Part shown: positions 5,288 through 59,130 of the stretch, piece by piece
Layout of the letters: each line of letters opens with the position of its first letter
Numbering within the stretch: position 1 is the first letter of the stretch
Assembly (NCBI GenBank): GCA_964229355.1
Contig: CAXRDE010000016.1
Location: 83,732 to 147,731, forward strand
Reading direction: 5' to 3'
DNA from: Candidatus Sericytochromatia bacterium
Lineage (GTDB): Bacteria > Cyanobacteriota > Sericytochromatia > UBA7694
Length of the DNA stretch: 64,000 nt
Made by a program: the position numbers and the translations under genes
Notes under the pieces: generated by a model
Told to the model about the DNA's origin: nothing
Databases searched by the model: none
Seen by the model: only the letters and a program-made list of their open reading frames with translations

Positions 5288-5355
5288 AAGTCTAAATCTC
5301 CTCTAAGTTCTCTTACACGCTTCTAGTGTATATATACCCATTTTTGAGTAAGTTA

Positions 5356-5391
5356 ATCACGGCGATGAAAATATATTTTTATCGCCGTGAT
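5356..5391 (-). other. Intergenic stem-loop between the 2114-aa and 1348-aa genes
   Basis: Perfect 11-bp inverted repeat ATCACGGCGAT ... ATCGCCGTGAT with a 14-nt A/T loop, 12 nt below the stop at 5403. No T-tract follows, so it may be an RNA stability or processing element rather than a clean terminator. Confidence 0.45.
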
Positions 5392-5402
5392 CAGGCGCTC
5401 AG

Positions 5403-11801: not shown

Positions 11802-12971
11802 CTAGGCTGGACTTGCGCTAGAACCTGCTGCCAACAAGGCCTCTAGTTTTTGTAACTTCTGCAGGGCTGCAGCAGCTTGTTTTTTGGCGGCCTGATATTC
11901 TACGACGGCATCTTGATATTCTTCTTCATACTGTTTAGCGACACTGTTCATGGCCATAAACTGGTTGAGAGAGGTGCCAAGGGGTTTAAAGAGAACTTTT
12001 TGGAAAGCATCTTTTGCACCCTCACCGAATTTATTAATCACATTTTTCTCTTTGAAGATGTTTTCAGCTTGATTGGCCACGCGATCGTCAATGTTCAGGC
12101 CTCTTTGAATATTTTCGTTTCGCAGCAAGCCCAACGCGCTTTGCGCACTTTGGCGGTAAGCGGGGTTGATTTGCGTGGAGCGACTGAGCATTCCAGCGGC
12201 CATGCGCTCCCCGGCATCGCTTCCTACGGGGGTTGTACTGCCTTCTACAGAGCGTGAACCCTGAGCAAAAAAGCCGTTTTCTCCAAATAACTCACCCCGC
12301 AAGGCGTCGCTCATGTTACCGGTGGCCGGATCTAAATCGCCAGGATTAAAGGCGGGGGGTGGGCCTTCTTGTAGCATGGCACGCAGCGGACTGCCCTCAG
12401 GGGTGTTTTCCAATAAATTGCGAGCCATTTCGGTCTGAGAGACGTTTTGAAAGCCCTCCACCTTACCTGTGGTGGTGTTAACCCCCATAATCGAAAAGTT
12501 TCTTTGAGAGGGGTTATAAGATACAACGGCGCCTTCCTGACTGTTCCCGCCTGCGTTTGCAATTTGAAAAGAAACGGCATATTTGTTAATGTCTGCATTG
12601 CTCATGGGGGCGAGCTGGCTGTCGTCAGACACCTGTCGCTCATCTTTATTGAGCATGTCTGCGACGCCGTCCAAAATGCCTCCACCGAGGGTGCCAAGTA
12701 GTACAAGGGCTGCTGCATCTTTGGCGCGCTCCATACGATCCTTTTTGAGCTGCATCATTTTTTCGGCTTTTTCTTTTTTGATGTCAGCGCTTTTGGCTTC
12801 ATATTCGGCTTCAATCTTGCTACGCATTAATTCGTCTTTGCGTTGTGCATTGGCGGTGCCCACGGTTTTTACATCGTCTTGCACGGCTTTAATGTTTTGA
12901 CCCTGGTTTTGATGGAATTGGAGGGCCGCATCTGCAGCCTGGCGGGCGTATTCAAATGACATAAAGCTCAT
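11802..12971 (-). CDS. Cys-free 389-aa protein, 'mini' paralog of the 2114-aa protein (same N and C modules)
   Basis: SD GAGGAG 10 nt upstream of the ATG. N-module RSKIEAEYEAKSADIKKEKAEK followed by the hydrophobic Gly-rich AAALVLLGTLGGGILDGV. C-module KFGEGAKDAF...YQDAVVEYQAAKKQAAAALQKLQ. Both align by eye to the 2114-aa protein. Confidence 0.8.
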   Translation of the reverse strand: MSFMSFEYARQAADAALQFHQNQGQNIKAVQDDVKTVGTANAQRKDELMRSKIEAEYEAKSADIKKEKAEKMMQLKKDRMERAKDAAALVLLGTLGGGILDGVADMLNKDERQVSDDSQLAPMSNADINKYAVSFQIANAGGNSQEGAVVSYNPSQRNFSIMGVNTTTGKVEGFQNVSQTEMARNLLENTPEGSPLRAMLQEGPPPAFNPGDLDPATGNMSDALRGELFGENGFFAQGSRSVEGSTTPVGSDAGERMAAGMLSRSTQINPAYRQSAQSALGLLRNENIQRGLNIDDRVANQAENIFKEKNVINKFGEGAKDAFQKVLFKPLGTSLNQFMAMNSVAKQYEEEYQDAVVEYQAAKKQAAAALQKLQKLEALLAAGSSASPA

Positions 12972-13086
12972 AAATTAAATTCTCCTCAATATGAAGCGTT
13001 GGTGGATAGGCAGAGAGATCCGCATACCTTATCTGCTATATACCCCGAACCCCTGTGCCTTTAAACAAAAAATTAACAAACAGTTA

Positions 13087-14235
13087 TTAAAAACCGTCCA
13101 GAAGCTGGCGCAGGATATAGCGTTTGTCTTCACCTTGAGAAATGCTGAATTGCTTTTCGCCGAGGACATTTTCCACATCTCGGCTATTTTGAGCGTAAAT
13201 GCGAAAACGGACTTCCGTACGCGTGTCACCTTTCTGGGGCGGTGATGAAATCTCTTCGAGCCGTACGGCTTCTATTTTTTGATGAGAAATGGTGTTCATG
13301 GACTGGATCATCTGGCGTTGGGCATAGTCCTCGTAGGCAGCCACAAGACTATTATGGGCTGCTGTTACTGTGGGGGCATTCACATACAAATAGTACTGAA
13401 ATGGAGCCGTATTGCCTTCCACCTGAATTTCCCAGTATTTTCCGCCCAGTTCGGCTTTGATTTCTGCATCCCTTTCTTCAGGGCTTCGGTAACGGTCATC
13501 TGCCAGGTATTTGGCGGCGATCCAATACCGTGCTGTATCACTGGTTTCGATCTTGAGCCATTGTGCGTTATCGCTCTTGCCCACGAGCAAGACCATTGTG
13601 TTGCGCGGGATTTTCAAATCTACCGTCTGCGCGGGATTGTCGTCTGCTGAGGTGGGTGGTTCCAGATAGACCGGCGGGTTTTCTTGAATGATGTACTTTG
13701 AGGGATAGGGCTCATAGAGCACCTCGGGAATGGTTAAGGTGACCACCGAGGTGCTCTTTTTGAGGGTGCCACCCCCGCCGCCCGGGTTGCGTCCTTTGAG
13801 CTCCACCTGCACCTGATAAGAATCCCCTCGTTCAAAGCGATCTGTGAGTGCTGATGGGCTTGGACTGGGTTCTACCTTGGCGGGTTTGGAAAAGCTTTTC
13901 ATGACCATGGGAATGAGGAGCGCCAGGAGCATGAGCGCCACCAGGGTAATGCTAATACCGGCAATGAGTAGTGCATTTTCTTTGAGGGTATCTAAGAGAG
14001 GCTCCCACCATTTTTTATCGTGGTTGCCTTCGCTTTCTTGCACAAAGGCCACCATGTCGTGAAGTTCGTCAATGGTTTGCTGGACTTCATCGCGGGTGGC
14101 TTCGTCATGTACCCATTTTTGAGCCTGACGATAAGCTTTGAGGGCGCCCACCAAATCTCCTGTGTTATGAAGGCGTTGGGCCTCTTCCAGGGTTTCAGAT
14201 AATTGTTTTTTCTTGTGTTGTAGGGGTTCTGTCAT
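13087..14235 (-). CDS. Single-pass membrane protein with TPR-like cytoplasmic N-terminus and SH3b-like outer domain
   Basis: TM helix ALLIAGISITLVALMLLALLIPMVM. N-terminal LEEAQRLHNTGDLVGALKAYRQAQKW. WLKIETSDTARYWIAAKYL resembles bacterial SH3. Directly upstream of the giant genes. Confidence 0.65.
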   Translation of the reverse strand: MTEPLQHKKKQLSETLEEAQRLHNTGDLVGALKAYRQAQKWVHDEATRDEVQQTIDELHDMVAFVQESEGNHDKKWWEPLLDTLKENALLIAGISITLVALMLLALLIPMVMKSFSKPAKVEPSPSPSALTDRFERGDSYQVQVELKGRNPGGGGGTLKKSTSVVTLTIPEVLYEPYPSKYIIQENPPVYLEPPTSADDNPAQTVDLKIPRNTMVLLVGKSDNAQWLKIETSDTARYWIAAKYLADDRYRSPEERDAEIKAELGGKYWEIQVEGNTAPFQYYLYVNAPTVTAAHNSLVAAYEDYAQRQMIQSMNTISHQKIEAVRLEEISSPPQKGDTRTEVRFRIYAQNSRDVENVLGEKQFSISQGEDKRYILRQLLDGF

Positions 14236-15156: not shown

Positions 15157-17646
15157 TTAGCTTAGCCGTTGATAAGCCGTCTGATACTGTTGCTTGAGCC
15201 CTGAGGGAATCAGCTCTCCCGCTTCAATGAAGGTTTGCTCCATTTGTTCTCCCCAGGCTTCGAGCTGGCGCAGATCCTGAGCGGATAGTGCCTGTTCAAA
15301 CAATTGGGCAAACACTGCGTCACAGGTGGGCTCAAACTGTAGCCAGCGGGTGAGGTAAGCCCTGGCCTGTTCGGGTTCTCGACGTGCTTGCCACTGGCGT
15401 GCACACCAGAGAGTCAGCTCACGACCCTGACGCTGGTAGTGTTCCCGCTCTGCTTGCCAGAGATCTGCAAAGTCCAGCTCAGGTAAAAATGTGCCCTGGT
15501 AGAAAGCCAGCGTTTTTTCAACGGTGTCCAGTGCTTCAGGTTCTGCTTTGTGCTTCAACCAGTAGTCATAGCCATCACTAAAGTTTTCCGCATCCCACTG
15601 GTAATGGCTTTGGCGGTTAAAGCGGTAGCAAGCGTCTTGAAAATGAATGTACTGAGACGTTTGCTTGCCTTTGCGCTGAGGTTCGAGCACTTTTCTTAAG
15701 GCATGAATGTGCACGTCTAGCGAGCGCAGGGCTTGCTCCAGATCGTCTTGCCCGGTGAGCCAGTCGGCAAGGGTCTCACGGTGAATGCTGTGGCTGTGCA
15801 ATAAAAGTTGAACCAGGATATGTCGGGATTTTTTTCGGGGCCAGCGTCCCACGGGTTTGTCCTGTAAAAATACCTGAAATCCGCCGAAGGTCTGGATGCG
15901 CAGCTCCGCAGAGGTGGTGGCTAACACGCGGCGTGTGGACGAGCTGGGCTGCGCTTTGCTAGCGGAGACGGGCAGTAAGGCTTCAGCCTCTCTTACCAGG
16001 CCTTGAGAACCGTTTTCCTGGGCCTGGTGCAAAATATGCTGCAGCAGAGGGTAAGCGCTGTCTGGTGGGGTTTGGCGTAAAAGGGAGAGGGCTTGATTGA
16101 GTTGAGCGTAGAGGGCTGCAAAGCTGTTGGGTTCCAGGCGCTCCAAAGCCTGCGCGTGTAAACGCAAGGCGCGATCTTCCTGCTTTAGAAAACGCCATAA
16201 GCGCGCTTCCACGTCCCAAATGAGGGGCCAGAGTGAATCCCAGTTGAGGGTTTCTGCAATTTGTTTGGCCTGGGTGATCAGGGTTTGCGCGAGCGTGACG
16301 TCAATGCGTTCTCCCAATAGTTGAGCAAAGACCAGGTTCAGGTAAATAAGGGGTTGTCGTGTGAGCGGCAGCTTTTGTACCTGTTCTACGAGGGCCAAAA
16401 CCGCTGGAGCATCGGTACTTTGTTGGTGGTCCTGGAGCGCTTGTAAAAAATACAACATGCTCTGAATTTCGAGTTGCATGGCCGTGTTGCTGTCGTGATG
16501 GGCCAGTGCAAGGGCTTGTTGGTAGAGGCTTTCGGTTTGGTGGTATTGTCCCTGCTGATAATAGGTTAAGCCGCGCAATTGCACAGCACGGGTTTGAAAA
16601 CGGGTCACGTGCCGACCCCGTAAATTTTGGAGCTGATCTAAAAAATGGTGGGCTTCTGCATAATGAGCCTGTTGTCGCGCGCGGTTGGCGCGCAGATAGA
16701 GCCAGGCAGCCTGATCCTGAGGGTGGAGTTCTGTGGCGGCTTTCAGGAGTGGCTCAGCCTGACTTAACAGGCGATCACAGTCTTTCCATTGCCCCGCCTG
16801 TAAGTATTGGTGGGCCAGATGGGTCAATACTTTGAGCTGGTGCGCCGGCTCATCACTTAAACCTGCAGCGCGATAGAGATAAGCCCGTCGCTGAGATAAA
16901 TCTTCACTCTGTAGGGCTTGATGCAGCCAATAGTGAGGATTTTCTTTTTCGGCTTCTTTCTGTAGGCGTTGCCAGAGCTCGGAAGGAGCCTGTGTCCAGT
17001 ATGCAGGGGTGCGTTGGCGGTCCTGCAAGCGTCGGGTGAGCACCTGCAGGCACTGGGCGCTAGAGATCTCACCCAGGCGGACTTTGGTGTGTAAGAGCAA
17101 GGCCACGGGCCAGCCCCGGCAGGCTTCCCAGAAGGTTTGATCCTCAGCGGTCCAGGGTAAGTCCAGCCCTTGCCAATACGCCTGGCTGGTCTTCAGAGAC
17201 CAACAAAAATCTGACCTTTGATAAACATGTGCGCCTTCCACAAGCCACTGGCTTAAATCCAGAGCCGGTAAGGCTTCAAAAGCCAGCACAAAGCTGACGT
17301 TTTGGGGTGGGTTTTTTAAAAGGTGTTGCCAGAGTTCTGTGATTTCAGGGGCTGTCAACACCGTTTCGCCGTCGTCTTGAAACCACCACAGGGGCTCTGA
17401 TTGATGCTGTAACCATTGCAAGACATCGTGGCGGTTTGTCAGCGGCTGTTCTGCCTGCTGACTGAGGACCGCAAGATAATTCTGAAAACAAAATTTATCC
17501 AAAGCAGAAGCAGACAAAAATATGCTGTTTTGACCCCCGTGTTGCAAGGTTTCATGCCATTGTCTTAGTTGTTTGCTTTTGCCATACCCCGTGGGAGCCA
17601 CACACAGGGCTCCCGGGGGCTTTAATGCAGGCAGTGCCTGATGCAT
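15157..17646 (-). CDS. Large regulator with P-loop NTPase, TPR-like middle, and C-terminal winged-helix plus BTAD (SARP-type) domain
   Basis: P-loop APTGYGKSK near the N-terminus. C-terminal LRIQTFGGFQVFLQDKPVGRWPRKKSRHILVQLLL...HALRKVLEP (OmpR/SARP wHTH), then a BTAD-like segment FLPELDFADLWQAEREHYQRQGRELTLWCA. Confidence 0.7.
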   Translation of the reverse strand: MHQALPALKPPGALCVAPTGYGKSKQLRQWHETLQHGGQNSIFLSASALDKFCFQNYLAVLSQQAEQPLTNRHDVLQWLQHQSEPLWWFQDDGETVLTAPEITELWQHLLKNPPQNVSFVLAFEALPALDLSQWLVEGAHVYQRSDFCWSLKTSQAYWQGLDLPWTAEDQTFWEACRGWPVALLLHTKVRLGEISSAQCLQVLTRRLQDRQRTPAYWTQAPSELWQRLQKEAEKENPHYWLHQALQSEDLSQRRAYLYRAAGLSDEPAHQLKVLTHLAHQYLQAGQWKDCDRLLSQAEPLLKAATELHPQDQAAWLYLRANRARQQAHYAEAHHFLDQLQNLRGRHVTRFQTRAVQLRGLTYYQQGQYHQTESLYQQALALAHHDSNTAMQLEIQSMLYFLQALQDHQQSTDAPAVLALVEQVQKLPLTRQPLIYLNLVFAQLLGERIDVTLAQTLITQAKQIAETLNWDSLWPLIWDVEARLWRFLKQEDRALRLHAQALERLEPNSFAALYAQLNQALSLLRQTPPDSAYPLLQHILHQAQENGSQGLVREAEALLPVSASKAQPSSSTRRVLATTSAELRIQTFGGFQVFLQDKPVGRWPRKKSRHILVQLLLHSHSIHRETLADWLTGQDDLEQALRSLDVHIHALRKVLEPQRKGKQTSQYIHFQDACYRFNRQSHYQWDAENFSDGYDYWLKHKAEPEALDTVEKTLAFYQGTFLPELDFADLWQAEREHYQRQGRELTLWCARQWQARREPEQARAYLTRWLQFEPTCDAVFAQLFEQALSAQDLRQLEAWGEQMEQTFIEAGELIPSGLKQQYQTAYQRLS

Positions 17647-28276: not shown

Positions 28277-28855
28277 TTAACTCAGGCCATTCAAAACAGC
28301 TTTTGAGATGGCTTTAAGCGTGGCAAAAACACCCTGACCGTTGACAGCAACTGCCTCAAAATAGGGCACTCTCTCAGGGTTCAGGTCGTTTTCTAGTTCT
28401 TCGACGGGCATTGAGTCAGGAATATCGCGCTTATTGTATTGAATAATCCAGGGTATTTTACCCAGAACCATACCGTAAGAAGCCAGGTTCTCAATCATGT
28501 TGGCTTTGCTATCAATATTTTCTTGCTTCTTCTTGCGAGAAGAGTCAGCCACAAACACGAGACCGTCGGCGCCGTTCAAAACGAGACGACGGCTGGCGTT
28601 GTACTCTACCTGCCCTGGAACAGTATAGAGCGAGAACTTGGTTTTAAATCCTTGCACAGACCCCAGGTCTAAAGGCAAGAAATCAAAGAACAGGGTGCGT
28701 TCATTGGCTGTGTTTAGCGATACCATTTCACCCCGAATGGTGGGACTGAGTTGTTTATGTAAGTATTCTAAGTTGGTCGTTTTTCCACCCATACCGGTTC
28801 CGTAAAAAACCAGTTTACAGTGAATTTCGCGACTCGCGTAGTTAATTAGCGCCAT
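28277..28855 (-). CDS. mglA: Ras-like small GTPase MglA
   Basis: Close to the MglA consensus: INYASREIHCKLVFYGTGMGGKTTNL, ERTLFFDFLP, LYTVPGQVEY, IQYNKRD. Confidence 0.9.
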   Translation of the reverse strand: MALINYASREIHCKLVFYGTGMGGKTTNLEYLHKQLSPTIRGEMVSLNTANERTLFFDFLPLDLGSVQGFKTKFSLYTVPGQVEYNASRRLVLNGADGLVFVADSSRKKKQENIDSKANMIENLASYGMVLGKIPWIIQYNKRDIPDSMPVEELENDLNPERVPYFEAVAVNGQGVFATLKAISKAVLNGLS

Positions 28856-29308: not shown

Positions 29309-30196
29309 TCATAGTTCTATTTTTAATTCTTTTACCCAATGCTGAGTCGTGTCCGGAAAGACACGCTCAACTTTATTGATAACCTGCTGAAGAAATGTTT
29401 CTCCGTAGATCGGGGTGATCAGTTTTAACAAATGATTCAAGCAGATACTGTAAAGCTCAGTCTGTTCCACCAAACTCAAACTTTGTAATTTATCATCCAC
29501 AATGATACCATCTTGTAGCTCGATCATCCAGTTTTTTTCTTCAATCAGCTTTTCGAGCCGCTCATTCATCTCCTGTTTTAGTTTTAAACCACTGATGGAG
29601 TTGAACTCATTGAGCAAAGTGTTCGCCAGGGTCAAAAAGAAGCGTCGCAGCGCTGTGCTGGCCTCTTCTTTCAATTGGACAACGCCTTTGGCTTCTAAAG
29701 CGACGAGGGTTTCAATCACACCAATGGGGTCTTCTGGTACTTGATCCAGAAGTCCATGCAGCGCGACAGGCCCGTCAAAAGCTTTTAAGTGCTCAATCAG
29801 TGTGCTGTTTTGCAACGCGTCGGGAGACCCCAGGTACTGAACGTGGGTGTTAGGCGCAAGGGTGGGATATTTGCGCTGGATTTTTTTCCAGGTTTCGACG
29901 TAGATAATGCCTTGTTGAATCAGGGTGTCTAAATCACTGGAAATGGTGGGTTCAGGCAGTGTGGTTTCTGTTAAAAAGTCGAAGGTGGCACTGCTGCCAT
30001 AATTCAACATCTCATACACCGCAGCCTGTCCTGACAGTTCAGGCGTCTCTGCGTGAGACACCTTGCCGTCATGGACAAAAATACGACTCGTTAGCCCTTC
30101 AAACTCAATCACCAACTCGCCGGTTTTCTGACTGTCAATGAGGATCCTGAGGATATCGGGTAGGCTAAAGTCTGCAAATCTTCCGCTGAACTTCAT
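29309..30196 (-). CDS. DUF4388 / PATAN-domain protein
   Basis: N-terminal FSGRFADFSLPDILRILIDSQKTGELVIEF...RIFVHDGKVSHAE matches the DUF4388 pattern. 4-nt overlap with the upstream gene. Confidence 0.7.
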   Translation of the reverse strand: MKFSGRFADFSLPDILRILIDSQKTGELVIEFEGLTSRIFVHDGKVSHAETPELSGQAAVYEMLNYGSSATFDFLTETTLPEPTISSDLDTLIQQGIIYVETWKKIQRKYPTLAPNTHVQYLGSPDALQNSTLIEHLKAFDGPVALHGLLDQVPEDPIGVIETLVALEAKGVVQLKEEASTALRRFFLTLANTLLNEFNSISGLKLKQEMNERLEKLIEEKNWMIELQDGIIVDDKLQSLSLVEQTELYSICLNHLLKLITPIYGETFLQQVINKVERVFPDTTQHWVKELKIEL

Positions 30197-37457: not shown

Positions 37458-39710
37458 ATGGTTGCTCAAAACCCCAATGTCTCTTTTTCGCGTGCAAAAA
37501 ATTCCCCTGGTTTTACGGATGTAAAAGCTGCGTCCACAGCGTCTCTTGCGGCCAATCAGATGTCTTTTGAGGTGCAAGCCCCTGTGATCGAACCGGTGGC
37601 TACAGAGAATGCCTTGCAGCATTTTGGGGCTTCCTCTCATGCGCCCAATCGTTTTTCTTTCCAGAAAGCGGCCTCAGCCCCTGCTGATTTGGCGTCCCTT
37701 GCCGCGGAAATCCAGCCGTTGCTCAAACAACACGAAACCTTGACGCGCGCGCTTCAGAATTGGAAAAGCTATGGTATTTCAGGAATGACGCAGCTTCAGG
37801 CCCGTCAGGCCCTGCGTAAAATCTCTCGCACGCTCGAGCCCCTGTTGCAGAATCACAATCAGCTTCAGCAACAGCGTTTAGAGATGCAAAAAGAAGGGCT
37901 AAGCCAGGCGGTTTTTTCTGATTTGCTGTCCCGGTATGCTGCGCAAGATTTAAGTATGAATGAAGTGCGAGACATGAGCTCGCCAAAAGCACAAGCACTT
38001 TTTGATGTCATCGATTACTATACGGTCAATCAGAGCCTGGAAAGCATCGCCCGGGATCCAGACGCACCTCAATTGGACGTGCAAAAAGGCATGGATTTGG
38101 TGTATGCCCGGCTGATGGCTAATTTTGTAGAAAAAGAGACAAATGCCGCAGCAGAGCTGTTGTTTTCTCAGCTGGCTGAAAACCCACATCTGTCTTTGAC
38201 CAGGAGCCAGGAGGAATTGCTTGAAGCCTATGGCATTGTGCCCAATGGGCAGGGGCAATTGCTCAATTATGCGTCGGGGGAGTTTGTGTCAGCGGCGGAC
38301 TTTGATGATTTCAACCAAATTCTGGCTTATCAAAAAGCCCAGGTGTTGGCGTCGGGTCAAAGTTCGGCCACCTTATCAGCCGCTTCCTCACTGCTTCAGT
38401 TTACGGGCATGCAAGGGGCAGAAATGATGCGTCCTATTTTTGAAAACCCAGAGCTTCAGCAACTCACTGAAAGCGCGCGCATGGCCAATGGGACCCTGGG
38501 GCGTGCTTTATTGGCAAAGCAGCATCTCGAATCACAGGGCCAAATCCTGGATCAGGCGCTGGCTGCAGCCAAAGCGGAGCGCAGTCGCCTGGAAAATCAA
38601 AAAAATGATTTGCTAAAGGGCCTGTCTGCGGTTGAAGAACAGCTCGAAACCACCACACAAGCGCAAGGGGTCGTACAAGAGGTGGCCGCTGAAGTTCAAG
38701 ATCTTGAAACCGAATCGGATGTGGTCAGCTATTTAAAGAGCGCTTCTTTGGGAAAGCGAAGCCTATTAGAGGGCCTGGGTATTAAACTGGAAGGCTCTGA
38801 CCATCGTGGGTGGCAGGTGTCTGTGGCCGGTCAGCCCTGGCGCCCTGGGGCAGGCAGGCAGTTTCTGGGGCAGCGCCTGCAAGAAAAAATCACGGCGCTG
38901 GATCTTAAGGTAGAGTCCTTAAGGTCTCAGACGCAGTCTTTGAAAGCCCAATATGAACGGGTGGATGCCGCGCTCCAGGATGCTGAGAAAACCACTCAAA
39001 ATCTGGAAGTCGCAACGCAAGATTACGAACACGCTTTTAACGTGTATGAGACGGAAATTGATGAACTGCGGGCTTTGCGTGCGGATCCCGAAGCCTGGGC
39101 TGCGCTTTCTCCTGAGGAACAGGCCACTGCTGAGCAATTGTTGTCCGAGGCAGATCAACAAGCGGCCTCGGCAAGACGTCGCTTACAGGCTGCGCGAGAA
39201 GAGCAAAAAGCTTTGCAAGCTACGTTGGAAGAAACCCGTGAGGTACTTGTTCAGGCACAAACACGCATTGAGAATATCTTACAGGGCATTCTGGCTTTGG
39301 CTGCTCAACAGCAAATCTTGCATCAGCAAGTGGGTCAACTGACCGGAGGAACGCTGAGTGTTGCCGATGAAAAAGCGCAGGCGTTGGTCAATCGCGCGGA
39401 GCAGCTTTCTCAAGGGTTAACCCTGGCCCCTGATCCAGAAAGCGAAGATGTGGGGGATTTAATTGCGGAGTGGCAGCGTATTTTAAAAGATACCCAGGCG
39501 CATTTTGCGCAATTATCTGCGGCGTTGCACACCTCGCAGCGCATTGAAAAAGAACGTCTGGCTCACTATGCGCAAGAAGCGTTGGAGTTGAATGCTTATA
39601 CCCAATCCTTCTTAGAAAAAAGCAGCACACAAAAGCAGGACTATCTGTCTCAGATTCAGCGTCAAGTTCAGCAACAGATTCAGCGATTGACAGCGGTGGC
39701 CTTGCCCTAA
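37458..39710 (+). CDS. Cys-free 750-aa coiled-coil protein, unknown function
   Basis: Long Q/L/E/A-rich heptad-like regions. No signal peptide and no Cys in the translation. First gene of the PrkA-containing gene string. Confidence 0.75.
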   Translation: MVAQNPNVSFSRAKNSPGFTDVKAASTASLAANQMSFEVQAPVIEPVATENALQHFGASSHAPNRFSFQKAASAPADLASLAAEIQPLLKQHETLTRALQNWKSYGISGMTQLQARQALRKISRTLEPLLQNHNQLQQQRLEMQKEGLSQAVFSDLLSRYAAQDLSMNEVRDMSSPKAQALFDVIDYYTVNQSLESIARDPDAPQLDVQKGMDLVYARLMANFVEKETNAAAELLFSQLAENPHLSLTRSQEELLEAYGIVPNGQGQLLNYASGEFVSAADFDDFNQILAYQKAQVLASGQSSATLSAASSLLQFTGMQGAEMMRPIFENPELQQLTESARMANGTLGRALLAKQHLESQGQILDQALAAAKAERSRLENQKNDLLKGLSAVEEQLETTTQAQGVVQEVAAEVQDLETESDVVSYLKSASLGKRSLLEGLGIKLEGSDHRGWQVSVAGQPWRPGAGRQFLGQRLQEKITALDLKVESLRSQTQSLKAQYERVDAALQDAEKTTQNLEVATQDYEHAFNVYETEIDELRALRADPEAWAALSPEEQATAEQLLSEADQQAASARRRLQAAREEQKALQATLEETREVLVQAQTRIENILQGILALAAQQQILHQQVGQLTGGTLSVADEKAQALVNRAEQLSQGLTLAPDPESEDVGDLIAEWQRILKDTQAHFAQLSAALHTSQRIEKERLAHYAQEALELNAYTQSFLEKSSTQKQDYLSQIQRQVQQQIQRLTAVALP

Positions 39711-48622: not shown

Positions 48623-49345
48623 CTATAGATTCAGCCCCAGATCCAGACAGAGGGAAATGAGACCTCCACCCGGGCAGTCGTCCGAACCTGAGCTGCCTGA
48701 ACCCGAGCTGCCTGAACCCGAGCTACCTGAACCCGAGCTGCCTGAACCTGAGCTGCCTGAACCTGAGCTGCCTGAACCTGAGCTGCCTGAACCTGAGCTG
48801 CCTGAATTTTCTGACGTATTGTTTTCAGGGAACTGAAGCTCTACTCTAGAAGATACACCCTCGGGACCCACGGCTTCAAGGGCGATGGTGTATTGCGTCT
48901 CTTCTTCAAGCCCTGTGAGAGTGTAGTTAGGTAAAACAATATTTTCTTTCACGAGTTGGTTATCGAGATATAAACGGTAGGTGTGCGGGCTTGTTTCCTG
49001 GCTTTCCCAACCGAGCAGTATGCTACCTGTTGATTGAGAGAGTATGCGTAAGTTGACCGGGGCTTTTAGCGGTAAATTGCCAGAGTTTGATGAGTGACTT
49101 TCGGAGGATGTGGGACTTTGCGCAGCTGCGTTGCTCTGTATTGTATTTCTGTTGGCGTTCGATGAATTGTTTTGGGTCTGGGAAGCGTTGCTTTGGAGTC
49201 CCGGTGCTACCGAGTTATTTGGAAGATTACCCTGGCAGCTTTCAGGCTGCATAAGGCATGAGCTTGGGGTCCCGATGCCCGATTGACACGCTCCAAGTAC
49301 GCCACATATTAGAAGAGAGAGACTTACCTTTACCGTTTTCATCAT
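48623..49345 (-). CDS. Lipoprotein with FN3 domain and (SGSSG)8 repeat
   Basis: Lipobox LGAC. FN3-like PVNLRILSQSTGSILLGWESQ...YTLTGLEEETQYTIALEAVG. Ser/Gly repeat, then the tail DDCPGGGLISLCLDLGLNL. Confidence 0.75.
   Translation of the reverse strand: MMKTVKVSLSLLICGVLGACQSGIGTPSSCLMQPESCQGNLPNNSVAPGLQSNASQTQNNSSNANRNTIQSNAAAQSPTSSESHSSNSGNLPLKAPVNLRILSQSTGSILLGWESQETSPHTYRLYLDNQLVKENIVLPNYTLTGLEEETQYTIALEAVGPEGVSSRVELQFPENNTSENSGSSGSGSSGSGSSGSGSSGSGSSGSGSSGSGSSGSGSSGSDDCPGGGLISLCLDLGLNL
48684..48803 (-). repeat. Eight tandem 15-bp units encoding (SGSSG)n
   Basis: gaacc(t/c)gagct(g/a)cct repeated 8 times in frame. Only synonymous third-position differences between copies. Confidence 0.9.
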
Positions 49346-49570: not shown

Positions 49571-49634
49571 TGTCGTCAATGTCGTTAATGTCGTTATTTT
49601 TTCAAAAAGTCGTCGTTTACATTAATTGTCGTCT
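49571..49634 (+). promoter_or_regulatory. GTCGT direct-repeat array in AT-rich region upstream of the HTH-FlhAc gene
   Basis: TGTCGTCAA TGTCGTTAA TGTCGTTAT as three contiguous 9-bp repeats at 49571..49597. Further GTCGT cores at 49609 and 49628. They lie 40-100 nt upstream of the ATG at 49674. Confidence 0.4.
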
Positions 49635-49673
49635 GGTTTAAGCTAAGGGCACCCTTAAGAAAGGCGTTTTGTT

Positions 49674-50813
49674 ATGACGATATCAATCTCTATTGTTCCT
49701 GAAAAATTTTATACCTCCGAGGAGGTCAGTGAGTTTTTGCGGCTCTCTTTGCGAACCGTGCAACGCTTGCTTGCCAATCGTTCGCTGAATGCTTACAAGA
49801 TACACGGTCAATACCGTATTAAAGGCTTAGATCTTCTCCGTTATTTAGACAGCACCCGTCAGGATGATCAGCCACCTGCGCCGCAAACCCCTGCCCGTTA
49901 TACCGAATTTTTGAATGTGCACCCTTTAACGTTGCGTGTGGGTCAAGGTTGGTTGCCGCTAATAGAGGCAACCCCTGATTCTGAGGTACCCCAGACCTTA
50001 ATGGATCGCTTACCCGCTTTACGCCAGGATGTGGTAAAGACTCTGGGGTTTGTGCTACCGGGTCTGCGTGTGGAAGATAACCTTTCCCTTGCAGAAAGCG
50101 ATTTTGAAATATTTTTACAGGGAGTCTCTGTGTTGAAATCGACAACGGTTTCGCTCGTTGAGCCGCAGCTTGCTCTGGACGCCCTGGTAGACAGTTTAAA
50201 GCGTGTGGTCTGTCGCCACGCCCATGAAATGCTTTCCCGTGATGATGTGGCGGTTATGGTTGAAATGATTCGTGAAAAGCGTCCTGTGGTGGTAGAAGAA
50301 GTGATGCGCACGGAGTTGAATCCGCAGGGGCTTACGCTGGGGCAGCTCACCCAGGTCTTGCGCTATTTGCTCAAAGAGAGCGTGTCCATTCAACATATGG
50401 GGCTCATTTTAGAGGGGCTTGCAGACCACTTAACAGAAATGCCTTTAGATGCCCCCGTAAACAGTCAGCTCGGTGAAGCCTTGCGCCAGTATTTGTGCCG
50501 TCAAATCAATGCACCTCTGGCCAATGCTGAGGGCATTATTGAGGTGTTAACCCTTGATCCAGATTTAGAGCAGTATCTGGAAGCCGGGGCTCAGGGAGGG
50601 CAGCCAGATGATGCTTTTTATACGGTGCTCAACGGTGTGCGTACACAGCTCAAGGAAGCGCCTGCTTCAGTCATTATTTGTAGTCTGCCATTGAGACGTT
50701 ATTTGTTCAGTGCTTTGTACCGTCATTATCCGCAGGTTACCGTCCTGTCTTATCAGGAGATCCATGAGGATTATCGGGTCAAGCCCTTACTGAGTTTGGT
50801 TAAAGGCGTGTGA
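49674..50813 (+). CDS. Excisionase/MerR-type HTH fused to an FlhA/SctV (FHIPEP) C-terminal cytoplasmic domain; no TM region
   Basis: HTH: FYTSEEVSEFLRLSLRTVQRLLANRSLNAYKIHGQYRI. FlhAc-like: LTLRVGQGWLPLIE...LPALRQDVVKTLGFVLPGLRVEDNLSLAESDFEIFLQGV; LGQLTQVLRYLLKESVSIQHMGLILEGLADH; VIICSLPLRRYLFSALYRHYPQVTVLSYQEI. These parallel Salmonella FlhA MEVGYRLIPMVD...IRKKFAQDMGFLPPVVHIRDN, LTTLHKVLQNLLAEKVPIRDMRTILETLAEH and LLVNHALRPLLSRFLRRSLPQLVVLSNLEL. Confidence 0.75.
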   Translation: MTISISIVPEKFYTSEEVSEFLRLSLRTVQRLLANRSLNAYKIHGQYRIKGLDLLRYLDSTRQDDQPPAPQTPARYTEFLNVHPLTLRVGQGWLPLIEATPDSEVPQTLMDRLPALRQDVVKTLGFVLPGLRVEDNLSLAESDFEIFLQGVSVLKSTTVSLVEPQLALDALVDSLKRVVCRHAHEMLSRDDVAVMVEMIREKRPVVVEEVMRTELNPQGLTLGQLTQVLRYLLKESVSIQHMGLILEGLADHLTEMPLDAPVNSQLGEALRQYLCRQINAPLANAEGIIEVLTLDPDLEQYLEAGAQGGQPDDAFYTVLNGVRTQLKEAPASVIICSLPLRRYLFSALYRHYPQVTVLSYQEIHEDYRVKPLLSLVKGV

Positions 50814-51490
50814 CAACATTGTGTAAAGACCTGGAGAGCACCCGGTTGTCCCCACCACTGTCCCTTGCCCATGAATGTGGGTGATGCCTTAAAGCAGCGT
50901 TTTAAGTCCTGACGGAGTGTGGGGGCAGGTGACCAGGTCAATTGAAAGGTGAAAGCATTGAGCAGTACGGGGGGGGGTATCTCGACTTCTTGAAAACCAA
51001 TAAAGCGCTGTAAGGTTGGATGCAGCGCTTTATAAATGCTTTCTTTAAAAGAAAACACGAGGGTTAAGTCCAGGGGGGTTTTTACCCATGTTTCGGCGGG
51101 ATGCAAAATTTGCGATCGGAGACGTTGTGCTTTGTCTTCGGACATGACCCTTTCAACGTCGATGCCAATACCGCCGTAGCGGCAGAGGGGAACCAGCGTG
51201 GCTACCGCCAGCGTCGAGCTATGACTAATAGAGCCCGTAAAGCCCTTTGGCCACTGCGGCGCACCATGCTGGGGGTGGCTCTCAGGGTGCATGGGCAAGT
51301 GATCCCAGTTCAGGCCATAACGTGAGTACAGGATCTGCGCACAGGCTCGTCCGGCCAGATAGCTTTGCTGTCGTTGTTGTACCGCCTGATGCAGATGAGG
51401 CGGTAAGATCAGCGGATAAACTAAGCCGTCGAGGGTTCTTTGTAAGGTGTCTAAGGGTAGAAAGACGCAGTCCATTGCAGGCCTTGCCAC
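50771..51490 (-). CDS. 4'-phosphopantetheinyl transferase (Sfp/EntD type)
   Basis: GGIGIDVERV and FSFKESIYKAL motifs. Confidence 0.75.
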   Translation of the reverse strand: MARPAMDCVFLPLDTLQRTLDGLVYPLILPPHLHQAVQQRQQSYLAGRACAQILYSRYGLNWDHLPMHPESHPQHGAPQWPKGFTGSISHSSTLAVATLVPLCRYGGIGIDVERVMSEDKAQRLRSQILHPAETWVKTPLDLTLVFSFKESIYKALHPTLQRFIGFQEVEIPPPVLLNAFTFQLTWSPAPTLRQDLKRCFKASPTFMGKGQWWGQPGALQVFTQCCHTPLTKLSKGLTR

Positions 51491-56753: not shown

Positions 56754-56917
56754 GCTTCATCCTCCTCCAGAGGAAGGTGCCCCAGGTAATCGTAGAGCAC
56801 TCCCCGGTTTTTTTGCATTACAAATAACACCATGATCGTAAAGAAGCTAAAGAAAATCATTAAACCCAAAAGCGATAAGTGGGGCATATGAAATAAACGC
56901 ATGACTTCTGACTTCAT
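56750..56917 (-). CDS. ccoQ: CcoQ/FixQ-like small membrane subunit (55 aa)
   Basis: Not in the track (<60 aa). Manual translation: MKSEVMRLFHMPHLSLLGLMIFFSFFTIMVLFVMQKNRGVLYDYLGHLPLEEDEA. ATGA overlaps at both ends (ccoNO stop, ccoP start). Confidence 0.7.
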   Translation of the reverse strand: MKSEVMRLFHMPHLSLLGLMIFFSFFTIMVLFVMQKNRGVLYDYLGHLPLEEDEA

Positions 56918-59130
56918 TCTTTTCCTCCTGCGGCCACAGCCGTGACGGCTTCCGGCACAAAATCACTACTGGGTTTGCCCAGGCGCTGTAGGTAGGCAAT
57001 CAAGGCGACCACCTCGCGTGATTCAAGCTCGGGGTCTTGAACACCCCCTTCTCTCAGGCGATCGCTAATAACTTTGGCCTGTTGCTTTGCGTGCTCTGAT
57101 GCTTTGGCGACCTCTTCATCGCTGTAGGGAACACTCAGGGTTTGCATGACGCTCAGTTTTGAGGTCAGGCTGTCAAAGTCGGTTTGATCTTTGGCCAACC
57201 AACCATAGTTGGGCATAATGGACTGAGGCACAATATCCCGAGGATTGATCATATGGCGGAAATGCCACATGTCGGGGTATTTTGATCCCACGCGGGCCAG
57301 ATCTGGCCCTGTACGTTTAGAACCCCATTGGAAAGGCCGGTCGTACTGCGATTCTGCGGCAGTGCTGGGCTTTCCGTAGCGGAGGGTCTCATCCATGGTG
57401 GGGCGAATCATCTGGGAGTGACAGGTATAGCAACCTTCACGCACAAAGATGTCTCGGCCAGCCAGTTCCAGAGAGGTATAGGGTTTATGGGCGGTGCTGC
57501 GGGGCATAAACTCTTGCATGGTTAGCGCAGGAATAATTTCAATAATTGAACCTACCAACACAGCGAGAATGGTCAGAATACTGAACACTGCGGGTAAACC
57601 TTCCAGAACGCGATGGGCATGGTGGCCCAGTTCGTTGGCGGGAATTTTGTCTACACTGGCTAAAGCATAGGCTTTATGGGTTTGCTCTTCAGGAACATGA
57701 CCCGATTTAACGGTTTTATACAGGTTGTAAATCATGATGATAAAACCTGCAATAAAGAGCAGTCCGCCAATGGCGCGTACCCAGTAAAGGGGGACAATCC
57801 GGGTGACGGTTTCAATAAAGTCGGGATAGGTCAAGGTGCCTTCGGCGTTGAGTGCTCGCCACATCAGGCCCTGGGTAATCCCTGCGGCCCACATCGAAAG
57901 CATATAGACGCCGACGCCAGAAATGCCCAGCCAAAAATGGGCGTTCGCCAGTTTGTCACTGTACAGTTTGGTATTCCAGAGCTTGGGCACCAGATAATAC
58001 AGAATGCCGAAGGTTAAGAGGCCGTTCCAACCCAGAGTGCCCCCGTGAACGTGACCGATGGTCCAGTCTGTGTAGTGGCTCAGGGAGTTGACGGCTTTAA
58101 TAGAAAGCAGAGGGCCTTCAAAGGTCGACATACCGTAGAAGGTAACGGCCGCCACCAGAAATTTAATGGTGGGATCCGTACGTAAACGGTCCCAGGCACC
58201 CCGCAAGGTGAGCAGACCGTTGATCATACCGCCCCAGCTGGGGGCCCACAGCATAATGGAGAGCACCATACCCAGGGTTTGGGCCCATTCAGGCAAGGCG
58301 GTATACAACAGGTGGTGTGGACCGGCCCAGATATAGATAAACACCAGCGCCCAGAAGTGAATGATCGACAGGCGATACGAATAAACGGGGCGTTTGGCTG
58401 CTTTGGGGATGTAGTAATACATCAAGCCCAAAAAGGGAGTGGTCAAGAAAAAGGCCACGGCGTTGTGACCGTACCACCACTGTACCATGGCATCTTGAAC
58501 CCCTGCATACACCGGGTAAGATTTCAAGAAGCTGACGGGCAGCGCCACGGAGTTTACCACGTGGAGCAATGCCACCGTAATTAAGGTGGCAATATAGAAC
58601 CAGATGGCCACATAAATGTGACGCTCTCTGCGTCGAAACAAGGTGGCAAAAAAGTTCACCGAAAAAGCAACCCAAACCACGGTAATGGCAATATCAATGG
58701 GCCACTCCAATTCAGCATACTCTTTGCTGACGGTATACCCCAGCGGTAGGGTAATGGCCGCAGCCAAAATAATGGCTTGCCACCCCCAAAAGTGAATGCG
58801 ACTTAGCGTATCTGAAAACATGCGTGTTTTTAAGAGGCGCTGTGAGGAATGGTAAATTCCCATGAAAATGGCATTTCCGGCAAAGGCGAAAATAGCGGCA
58901 TTGGTGTGCAATGGGCGTAAGCGCCCAAAGGTTAACCACGGAATATTAAAGTTAAAGGGCCAGTAGGCCAATTGGAGCGCAGCCAGTAAGCCCACCACAA
59001 AAGAGATCAGAGCCCAACCTACGGTGGCGTAGGCAAAGTAACGGACGATTTGGTCATCGTAGCGAAAACTTTCGGGTTCCGGCTTTAATGGCATGGCTGC
59101 GTTATCAAGCGAATGATCAACGGTTGACAT
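56914..59130 (-). CDS. ccoNO: Fused cbb3 oxidase subunits I+II (CcoN-CcoO)
   Basis: 738 aa. Haem-copper oxidase helices with the His ligand region (GHVHGGTLGW; HFWALVFIYIWAGPHH), followed by the CcoO-type segment with CYTCHSQMIRP. Confidence 0.9.
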   Translation of the reverse strand: MSTVDHSLDNAAMPLKPEPESFRYDDQIVRYFAYATVGWALISFVVGLLAALQLAYWPFNFNIPWLTFGRLRPLHTNAAIFAFAGNAIFMGIYHSSQRLLKTRMFSDTLSRIHFWGWQAIILAAAITLPLGYTVSKEYAELEWPIDIAITVVWVAFSVNFFATLFRRRERHIYVAIWFYIATLITVALLHVVNSVALPVSFLKSYPVYAGVQDAMVQWWYGHNAVAFFLTTPFLGLMYYYIPKAAKRPVYSYRLSIIHFWALVFIYIWAGPHHLLYTALPEWAQTLGMVLSIMLWAPSWGGMINGLLTLRGAWDRLRTDPTIKFLVAAVTFYGMSTFEGPLLSIKAVNSLSHYTDWTIGHVHGGTLGWNGLLTFGILYYLVPKLWNTKLYSDKLANAHFWLGISGVGVYMLSMWAAGITQGLMWRALNAEGTLTYPDFIETVTRIVPLYWVRAIGGLLFIAGFIIMIYNLYKTVKSGHVPEEQTHKAYALASVDKIPANELGHHAHRVLEGLPAVFSILTILAVLVGSIIEIIPALTMQEFMPRSTAHKPYTSLELAGRDIFVREGCYTCHSQMIRPTMDETLRYGKPSTAAESQYDRPFQWGSKRTGPDLARVGSKYPDMWHFRHMINPRDIVPQSIMPNYGWLAKDQTDFDSLTSKLSVMQTLSVPYSDEEVAKASEHAKQQAKVISDRLREGGVQDPELESREVVALIAYLQRLGKPSSDFVPEAVTAVAAGGKE

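Follow-up and report, generated by a model that had tools for sequence, protein, structure and literature searches.

The gene at 49674..50813 (+) of the 64,000-nucleotide stretch analyzed here (the window; positions 83,732 to 147,731 of contig CAXRDE010000016.1 from a Candidatus Sericytochromatia bacterium) encodes a 379-amino-acid (aa) protein in which a DNA-binding domain of the helix-turn-helix (HTH) type is joined to the cytoplasmic domain (FlhAc) of the type III export-gate protein FlhA. We found that this protein, HTH-FlhAc, belongs to a small family whose genes are preceded by an array of 9-bp direct repeats overlapping promoter-like boxes. The family most likely consists of self-regulating transcription factors rather than parts of a secretion machine. 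Our preferred explanation, held with moderate confidence, is that HTH-FlhAc is an autoregulated transcription factor specific to Sericytochromatia, cyanobacterial relatives that do not photosynthesize, in which the FlhA-derived domain serves head-to-tail oligomerization and possibly docking to an export gate.

A soluble fusion of a winged helix-turn-helix and an FlhA cytoplasmic domain

An initial annotation of the window, made from its letters, had proposed a soluble fusion of an excisionase-type HTH and an FlhA/SctV C-terminal domain, and profile searches bore this architecture out. Pfam HTH_17 matched residues 12-60 with an E-value of 2.8e-11 (44 bits against a cut-off of 27), and FHIPEP, the FlhA/SctV family, matched with an E-value of 9e-44 (150.5 bits against a cut-off of 29.1). 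The best stretch of the FHIPEP match, residues 170-366, corresponds to profile positions 456-655 of 657; the C-terminal part alone was matched. The NCBIfam models for FlhA (145 bits) and SctV (89 bits) both scored far under their full-length cut-offs because the protein lacks the N-terminal half, and because the FlhA model outscores the SctV model, we assign the FlhAc module to the flagellar rather than the injectisome type on the basis of its sequence. The NCBIfam 'excise' domain was also matched (34.5 bits against a cut-off of 28.8).

The structural model agrees with the profile matches. AlphaFold2 (AF2), run on the family alignment, gave a model with a predicted local distance difference test (pLDDT) score of 85 and a predicted template modeling (pTM) score of 0.73, and all of the top 50 Foldseek matches of this model in the PDB were FlhAc or SctVc structures. 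The best was Bacillus subtilis FlhAc (3mix; E 2.9e-23, target-normalized TM-score 0.80), which was likewise the best match in a phmmer search of PDB sequences (E 2.6e-29). No transmembrane (TM) segment was found in the 379-aa protein, where the maximum Kyte-Doolittle mean over 19 residues is 1.22, and tblastn with four FlhA N-terminal domains detected no membrane-domain remnant in the window or in any related locus. Two hallmarks of FHIPEP proteins are therefore missing from the window protein, the N-terminal membrane domain of about 330 aa with eight TM segments and a cytoplasmic part with all four subdomains (SD1-SD4), since SD2 is deleted. The protein is soluble and consists of an excisionase-type HTH and an FlhAc that keeps SD1, SD3 and SD4 and has lost SD2.

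The gene has an ATG start, is monocistronic and carries a Shine-Dalgarno-like sequence, AAGAAAGG (49657..49664, +), 9 nt ahead of the ATG. Its product begins with a BldC/Xis-type winged HTH (aa 12-60; 49707..49853), followed by a flexible proline-rich linker (aa 61-72; 49854..49889) that varies in length across the family and has a pLDDT below 50 at residues 63-71. The phmmer alignment to 3mix falls into two blocks, query 70-157 on chain 34-117 and query 176-370 on chain 179-375. The first contains a remnant of the FlhA linker (FlhAL) together with SD1 (aa 73-157; 49890..50144), including the FHIPEP motif LGFVLPG. The second contains the C-terminal helix of SD1 with the all-helical SD3 (aa 176-283; 50199..50522), delimited by alignment and AF2 (helices 164-282) and bearing the motif ESVSIQHMGLILEGLAD, and the alpha/beta SD4 (aa 284-375; 50523..50798), which is supported by alignment, AF2 and Foldseek. 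Between the blocks lies the scar of the SD2 deletion (aa 158-175; 50145..50198): its 18 residues take the place of 61 in B. subtilis FlhA, so about 43 aa are missing at the point where SD2 inserts into SD1. The absence of SD2 noted in the initial annotation was thus confirmed, while its estimate of 60-70 aa for the insert was somewhat too large.

What the FlhA-derived domain has kept is the part that builds the ring. In FlhA and SctV, the end of the linker, SD1, SD3 and SD4 make the head-to-tail contacts of the nonameric ring (e.g., 7amy, 7alw and 7osl), and these three structures are among the Foldseek matches. The linker residue Trp354 of Salmonella FlhA, which touches the neighboring subunit, aligns with Tyr76 in our alignment (6ai2 numbering, with G368 equivalent to G90), and position 76 is hydrophobic throughout the family. 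The motifs LGF(I/V)LPG and VSI(R/Q)N..ILE.LAD are also retained in the family. Mean pairwise identity among family members is 54% for SD3, 36% for SD1, 34% for SD4 and 24% for the proline-rich linker; with 74%, the HTH is the most conserved segment. The conservation of SD3 and of the FlhA-linker remnant speaks for a ring indirectly.

An array of 9-bp direct repeats overlaps the predicted promoter

The GTCGT repeats that the initial annotation had singled out upstream of the gene (49571-49634) are real: six copies stand on the + strand and none on the other, and the window has no second cluster of this kind. The distal block (49571..49594, +) consists of three 9-bp direct repeats in tandem (TGTCGTCAA / TGTCGTTAA / TGTCGT). 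A proximal repeat, R4 (GTCGTCGT; 49609..49616, +), abuts a putative -35 hexamer, TTTACA (49616..49621, +), which was assigned from its conserved position in the alignment of orthologues, where it mostly reads TTGACC. Another proximal repeat, R5 (TTGTCGTC; 49626..49633, +), lies within the 17-nt spacer that leads to a putative -10 box, TAAGCT (49639..49644, +), assigned from its spacing and its conservation as TAnnCT (TATGCT, TAAACT or TAGACT in orthologues). The tandem pattern TGTCGYNNNTGTCGY has an exact match in the window at the distal block only. No other copy of it is present in the 64 kb, for which about 0.7 matches by chance would be expected with one mismatch allowed.

The array is a constant companion of the gene. 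All 16 independent upstream regions carry it, always on the coding strand and with encoded proteins down to 32% identity to the window protein. Its layout consists of two to five tandem 9-bp copies, an A-rich gap, a copy fused to the -35-like hexamer, a further copy in the 17-nt spacer and TAnnCT. The junction at the -35 hexamer reads TGTCGT-TGACC in most lineages and GTCGTCGT-TTACA in the clade of the window; a TGTCGT-TGAC junction equivalent to that of R4 is present in 12 of the 15 other lineages. The equivalent of R5 lies 15-16 bp downstream of R4 in nearly all lineages and 19 bp downstream in the window and in locus L001. The consensus of 67 sites is TATTGTCGTTA. Of the 51 intervals between sites, 19 measure 9 bp, more than any other spacing, and the 15-16 bp of the pair around the -35 hexamer come next. 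The core motif reaches a density of 17 per kb in the 140-bp operator regions; the surrounding DNA, about 284 kb with both strands included, has 0.11 per kb, a difference of about 150-fold, and the motif is never found on the opposite strand of the operators. In the alignment of orthologues, the repeats keep a constant distance to the start of the gene that they precede and overlap the -35/-10-like boxes.

Autoregulation usually betrays itself by a cis-element that co-varies tightly with the gene of a DNA-binding domain, and we infer it here. The phylogenetic footprint strongly supports the repeats as the likely DNA target of the protein, as had been supposed in the initial annotation, and the position of sites over the -35 box and within the spacer suggests repression. 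A search for regulon members in the window and all related loci (clusters of TGTCGY/GTCGT and the tandem pattern) returned only the genes' own promoters, and the tandem pattern was not seen away from them in any locus scanned.

The DNA-binding domain resembles BldC

The N-terminal domain has a MerR-like/Xis-like winged HTH fold according to Pfam, AF2 and Foldseek. Modeled alone, it reached a pLDDT of 85.7, with strands at residues 12-14, 41-43 and 46-50 and helices at 15-22, 26-34 and 51-62. Its best Foldseek matches in the PDB were the BldC-DNA complexes 6ama and 6amk (TM-scores 0.70-0.81; root-mean-square deviation (rmsd) 1.3-1.6 Å), with an rmsd of 1.4 Å over 51 residues for 6ama. The next neighbors were the Xis of the mycobacteriophage Pukovnik, RacA, the oligomeric excisionase RdfS, GlnR and the N-terminal domains of MerR-family proteins. 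A search of the PDB with the single HTH sequence returned a designed repeat protein as its only match. In addition, we observed that the recognition-helix motif SLRTVQRL is near-identical to EAAEKLNVSLRTVQRLVKN in the N-terminal HTH of TnsB, the transposase of a cyanobacterial CRISPR-associated transposon, and HTHs of this type may be common in cyanobacteria.

The DNA sites of BldC are direct repeats of 9 bp (AATTxxxxC), in which an AT-rich part precedes a conserved C-G pair read by Arg30; each repeat is covered by one protomer, the protomers line up head-to-tail and the number of repeats in an array varies (PMC5859096). In the HTH profile alignment, Arg30 of BldC falls on the family-invariant Arg31, in a match that is itself weak (E 0.23). 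The repeats found here agree with a BldC-type binding mode for HTH-FlhAc in their period, in their confinement to one strand, in how their copy number varies and in having CG after an AT-rich part. The two proteins belong to the same HTH_17-type winged HTH class, and the arrays upstream of HTH-FlhAc genes have the period and layout of BldC sites. They differ in that BldC from Streptomyces is a single-domain protein of 68 residues, whereas the 379-aa window protein carries an FlhA-derived domain of about 300 residues; in the repeat, AATTxxxxC as opposed to ATTGTCGTT; and in their targets, a developmental regulon for BldC and the gene's own promoter as the only evident target here. The protein does not follow the pattern of classical MerR regulators, which have a C-terminal coiled-coil dimerization helix, an effector pocket and a palindromic operator within a promoter spacer of 19-20 bp: the AF2 model has no coiled coil after the winged HTH, the repeats are direct rather than inverted (no opposite-strand sites) and the spacer measures 17 nt.

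A proposed mode of action for HTH-FlhAc

From these observations we propose a working model. The BldC/Xis-type winged HTH would bind DNA head-to-tail with one protomer per 9-bp repeat (consensus ATTGTCGTT), as its structure and the repeats suggest. Its predicted sites are five to seven same-strand repeats, of which two to five stand in tandem upstream and two bracket the -35 hexamer and fill the 17-nt spacer. Because of this last arrangement, occupancy of the repeats would most simply exclude RNA polymerase, and we expect negative autoregulation. The C-terminal two-thirds of the protein would be the cytoplasmic domain recruited from a flagellar-type FlhA, and its most likely job would be to hold several HTHs in a ring or helical head-to-tail oligomer that matches the array. 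This scaffold role is favored because a direct-repeat array geometrically requires a head-to-tail oligomer. As a possible second job, FlhAc might dock to a retained fliPQR-flhB gate and so tie DNA occupancy to the gate.

Several points weigh against this model. The -10 box is poor (TAnnCT; three of six positions in the window), and a scan with the sigma-70 consensus did not call the promoter. The similarity to BldC has Foldseek E-values of about 1e-2 for a domain of 63 residues, and in the sequence search with the HTH profile the BldC match is weak, as stated above. BldC oligomerizes through its HTH alone, so that the FlhAc part may serve some other purpose. In the window and the related loci, the search for a regulon turned up the gene itself and no further member, and two loci with gate genes (L015 and L016) have no such repeats upstream of fliP, so the export-gate operon is not a general target. 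Apart from the promoter, the gene neighborhood is not conserved: an all-against-all comparison of open reading frames (ORFs) in 13 contexts revealed no neighbor common beyond close relatives. DNA binding, the sign of regulation, the oligomeric state, the ligand or partner and targets beyond the gene's own promoter are all deductions, and for DNA binding and autoregulation they come from phylogenetic footprinting and structural similarity.

HTH-FlhAc genes and fliPQR-flhB export-gate cassettes

The window itself contains no other flagellar or injectisome gene, in agreement with the initial annotation. This was determined by tblastn with FliP, FliQ, FliR and FlhB and by Pfam searches of another 39 ORFs (150 aa or longer), among which are all the non-nested ones but the last two at 62.3-64.0 kb. 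For the family as a whole, however, the claim that flagellar context is missing fails, as relatives tie the gene to a flagellar-type export gate. In Blackallbacteria CG17, the fusion gene and fliP-fliQ-fliR-flhB point away from each other, with the operator in the 255-bp intergenic region between them. In locus L022, from a metagenome-assembled genome (MAG) of a bioreactor, an intact flhB paralogue with the NPTH cleavage site is found 3.7 kb upstream of the fusion gene. This stand-alone second FlhB (5138-6337, -; 399 aa) is 34% identical to the cassette FlhB, and a normal fliPQR-flhB cassette (L025) is present in the same sample. CG17 and L022 are the only contexts with such proximity.

A search with the CG17 FlhB recovered a clade that comprises about 33 clusters (50-77% identity). 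In five of five contexts it forms part of an isolated fliP-fliQ-fliR-flhB cassette (L003 6862-9746, -; L015 8191-11068; L016 8154-11065; L024 1029-3907; L025 1357-4283), and within 10 kb of these five cassettes there is no flhA after flhB, no fliO and no other flagellar gene. The cassette FlhB proteins are 60-77% identical between genomes and keep the NPTH site. A cassette and a fusion gene share one 424-kb contig in GCA_053550095.1, and two further cassettes come from the same samples as fusion genes (L022 with L025, and another with L024). By contrast, the canonical flhA P0058, one of the closest non-family matches, lies in an ordinary fliO-P-Q-R-flhB-flhA-flhF-flhG operon (L026) of another organism. 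No canonical full-length FlhA of the same lineage as the fusion was found, and the closest non-family matches are of unknown or other origin. Three apparent soluble paralogues (P0326, P0331 and P0333) turned out to be N-terminally truncated canonical FlhA. Because both the FlhAc module and the cassette FlhB are closest to Firmicutes-type flagellar proteins and the cassettes lack flhA, the fusion plausibly derives from an flhA that once followed fliPQR-flhB cassettes. The stand-alone cassettes may belong to a scattered flagellar regulon or represent an orphan or repurposed export gate.

These findings allow another explanation, in which FlhAc recognizes the gate (the FlhB cytoplasmic domain, the FliPQR-FlhB complex or a FliH/I/J-like partner) and sequestration at the membrane frees the operator. 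Transcription would thereby be coupled to the assembly or activity of a flagellar-type type III secretion system (T3SS), which is compatible with a scaffold role of the domain. We regard this as possible, though we do not expect it. Besides the occurrence of cassette and fusion gene on one contig or in the same samples, it draws on the physical linkage in two distant lineages, divergent in CG17 and at 3.7 kb in L022; a rough estimate puts the chance of two linkages in about 14 independent contexts at ~1e-3, assuming one or two gate loci per 5-Mb genome. The SD3 subdomain with its canonical VSIRN/ILExLAD motif is well conserved, and the fusion family, with about 31 clusters, is similar in size to the FlhB clade, with about 33. 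Against it stand the lack of operator repeats upstream of fliP in both L015 and L016, the loss of adjacency even between close relatives (L024 versus L003) and the window, in which tblastn detected no gate genes.

A more far-reaching reading is that in Sericytochromatia an ancestral flhA was turned into a DNA-binding protein whose ring, of up to nine head-to-tail subunits, sits on the phased 9-bp array and shuttles between the promoter and an orphan FliPQR-FlhB gate. We consider this unlikely. If it were true, nine subunits of 9 bp each would cover about 81 bp in a nucleosome-like wrap.

Loss of the chaperone-docking site

The initial annotation had speculated that the protein couples the level of free chaperone or cargo to transcription. 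In such a mechanism, FlhAc would dock free T3SS chaperones or chaperone-substrate complexes and report their level to the promoter, as might be imagined from the overall FlhAc fold that the protein keeps and from the function of FlhAc as the chaperone-substrate docking platform of flagella and injectisomes, with 6ch2, 6ch3 and 7qij among its fold matches. The chaperone pocket of FlhA is located at the SD1-SD2 interface and includes Asp456, Phe459 and Thr490 in Salmonella. The region of this dimple is absent from the window protein, and SD2 is deleted in at least half of the family; mutant FlhA structures altered at these positions (6ai1-6ai3; D456V/F459A/T490M) are among the Foldseek matches. 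The segment enclosing SD2 ranges from 25 to 75 aa across the family. P0027, which keeps a complete SD2 (75-aa segment) and aligns end-to-end with B. subtilis FlhAc (E 3e-49), has NPIN in place of DPAF, with Asn/Asn as the equivalents of Asp456/Phe459, as is the case in SD2-retaining members. Because SD2-bearing P0027 already reads NPIN, the canonical docking site was given up early and SD2 then lost repeatedly, and SD2 is dispensable in the family. No chaperone-like or substrate gene was found nearby in any context examined. Chaperone or cargo sensing is accordingly improbable.

Soluble FlhA-derived proteins of other architectures also occur. P0046 (L014 32-2719; its cluster also holds P0313, 952 aa) is the closest non-family match to the window protein. 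Lacking a membrane domain, it carries FlhAc twice, in both cases complete with SD2 and the DPxxG..WI motif and with HEAT repeats after it. P0176 (745 aa, from JGI and annotated as FliG) has an FlhAc at 14-303 and FliG_N at 538-605.

A conserved family in one class of bacteria

A word-indexed search recovered about 30 orthologues with both domains (366-423 aa; 33-84% identity), and a later search added members including P0321 (456 aa), which is encoded on a 5.18-Mb contig. An exhaustive HMMER search of 1.84 billion sequences returned 19 representatives at E<1e-30, with a score gap below them; canonical FlhA scores no higher than 116 bits. Clustered at 50% identity, the family has about 17 representatives in this set. 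The nine loci of the GTDB species set all come from Sericytochromatia, Blackallbacteria or (unclassified) Cyanobacteriota MAGs, every family member with a named source comes from a Candidatus Sericytochromatia, Blackallbacteria or unclassified Cyanobacteriota MAG, and a scan of JGI metagenomes added only five loci. Each locus has one copy, and the pattern looks vertical within one class. A full-text literature search found no description of an HTH-FlhAc fusion, as a characterized regulator family or otherwise, nor of flagellar genes in Sericytochromatia. HTH-FlhAc is thus a small, conserved and apparently undescribed protein family, and its sequence conservation argues for a real gene family under selection.

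A role as an excisionase or recombination-directionality factor, or as another architectural protein of a mobile element with the repeats as recombination or arm-type sites, is very improbable. The HTH does match the NCBIfam 'excisionase family' model and, weakly, PHROG 66 (E 0.0018); Xis and RdfS are among its structural neighbors, and Xis-type proteins also bind tandem direct repeats. However, no integrase, transposase or phage gene is present in the neighborhood of the gene in the window or in 12 related contexts, the single copy per locus and the vertical-looking distribution do not suggest mobility, and the repeats keep their fixed distance from the gene start over the -35/-10-like boxes. 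PADLOC gave no matches, and with the PHROG matches of the HTH being weak, an origin from a defense system or phage was rejected.

We give scarcely any credence to HTH-FlhAc as a functionless relic of a decaying flhA, which progressive SD2 loss across the family and a seemingly reduced flagellar gene set, with cassettes lacking flhA, might suggest, since about 30 intact orthologues down to 33% identity show no frameshifts and the HTH (74%), the FHIPEP core motifs and the cis-element are all conserved. Nor is the gene a fragment of a disrupted flhA: besides the full-length orthologues and the lack of any TM-coding remnant, the 328 bp upstream are AT-rich intergenic DNA, beyond which lies a divergent gene for an fn3 lipoprotein.

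The gene neighborhood in the window

The genes near HTH-FlhAc encode the fn3 lipoprotein, a GT1 glycosyltransferase, a TPR protein, a phosphopantetheinyl transferase, an APH-type kinase, an EF-hand protein and a Crp-type regulator. The divergent upstream neighbor (48623-49345, -), predicted to be a lipoprotein, has a single fn3 domain and a run of about ten C-terminal (SGSSG) repeats, the opposite strand of which reads (PEPEL)n. At its 3' end, the HTH-FlhAc gene overlaps by 43 nt (50771-50813) with the convergent ORF of the 4'-phosphopantetheinyl transferase (50771-51490, -). Farther from the gene is a cbb3 oxidase cluster with ccoP, ccoG, DsbD_2 and P-type ATPase genes (54.6-61.7 kb), within which one 738-aa ORF (56914-59130, -) contains both COX1 (CcoN) and FixO (CcoO) and represents a fused cbb3-type oxidase subunit. 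An Arf/Ras-like small GTPase (28277-28855, -) lies about 450 bp from a DUF4388/PatA_N (PF14332) protein (29309-30196, -); a PatA_N protein of 640-650 aa flanks the fliPQR-flhB cassette in two Blackallbacteria contigs (L003 4202-6163; L024 4614-6542).

For several large ORFs (1348, 2114, 389, 382, 829 and 750 aa) at 1241-5287, 5403-11747, 11802-14235 and 15157-17646 (all -) and at 37458-39710 (+), Pfam gave nothing at E<=1e-5. A link between HTH-FlhAc and the giant and coiled-coil proteins, suggested in the initial annotation, was not upheld, since those at 1241-11747 have no Pfam domain, no repeat array of the operator type nearby and no conserved synteny with the gene.

Relation to known systems and significance

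To our knowledge, FlhA/SctV cytoplasmic domains have been known only as the substrate-docking ring of the type III export gate. HTH-FlhAc is clearly homologous to these proteins (PF00771; 3mix, 3a5i, 7amy, 7alw), with an E-value of 9e-44 and the same fold of SD1, SD3 and SD4. Unlike them, it has no eight-TM membrane domain, SD2 or chaperone pocket and is fused to a DNA-binding domain; and where canonical flhA directly follows flhB, as in L026, the window gene does not stand with flagellar or T3SS genes.

Several systems couple the state of a T3SS to transcription, among them FlgM/sigma-28, FliT/FlhDC, ExsADCE and IpgC/MxiE. A gate-sensing HTH-FlhAc would follow the same logic, with the status of the secretion apparatus feeding back on expression in a manner analogous to FlgM export or ExsE secretion. 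The known couplings use secreted anti-activators or chaperones, and we know of none that uses a copy of an export-gate protein as a DNA-binding regulator.

With regard to DNA binding, Xis/RdfS excisionases (PMC11963761) and RemA (PMC8481266) form cooperative higher-order oligomers on repetitive non-palindromic DNA, as HTH-FlhAc may do; unlike Xis and RdfS, it has no mobile-element context. RemA shows that a transcription factor on repeated sites can be a ring oligomer (PMC8481266). An FlhA ring domain serving as the oligomerization module of a DNA-binding protein was not described in the literature searched.

The two domains and the proposed binding mode of HTH-FlhAc are each of a known kind; their combination is new. 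The family is a case of domain reuse in which FlhAc has come off the membrane, been stripped of its chaperone-binding subdomain and been fused to a DNA-binding domain, and a class-level lineage has kept the fusion together with its cis-element for all of its history. In 16 lineages the operator is resolved to single base pairs, and a mode of binding can be predicted from the 9-bp phase of its repeats. Such binding would carry the BldC principle, direct repeats occupied head-to-tail, beyond the actinobacteria and into a multidomain protein. Should the ring reading be true, HTH-FlhAc would be the first transcription factor made from a secretion-machine ring and would connect gene expression to a T3SS-type gate in a direct, mechanical way. 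For the organisms themselves, the cassettes without an adjacent flhA raise the question of whether a T3SS-type gate may exist, or may have been repurposed, without a membrane FlhA.

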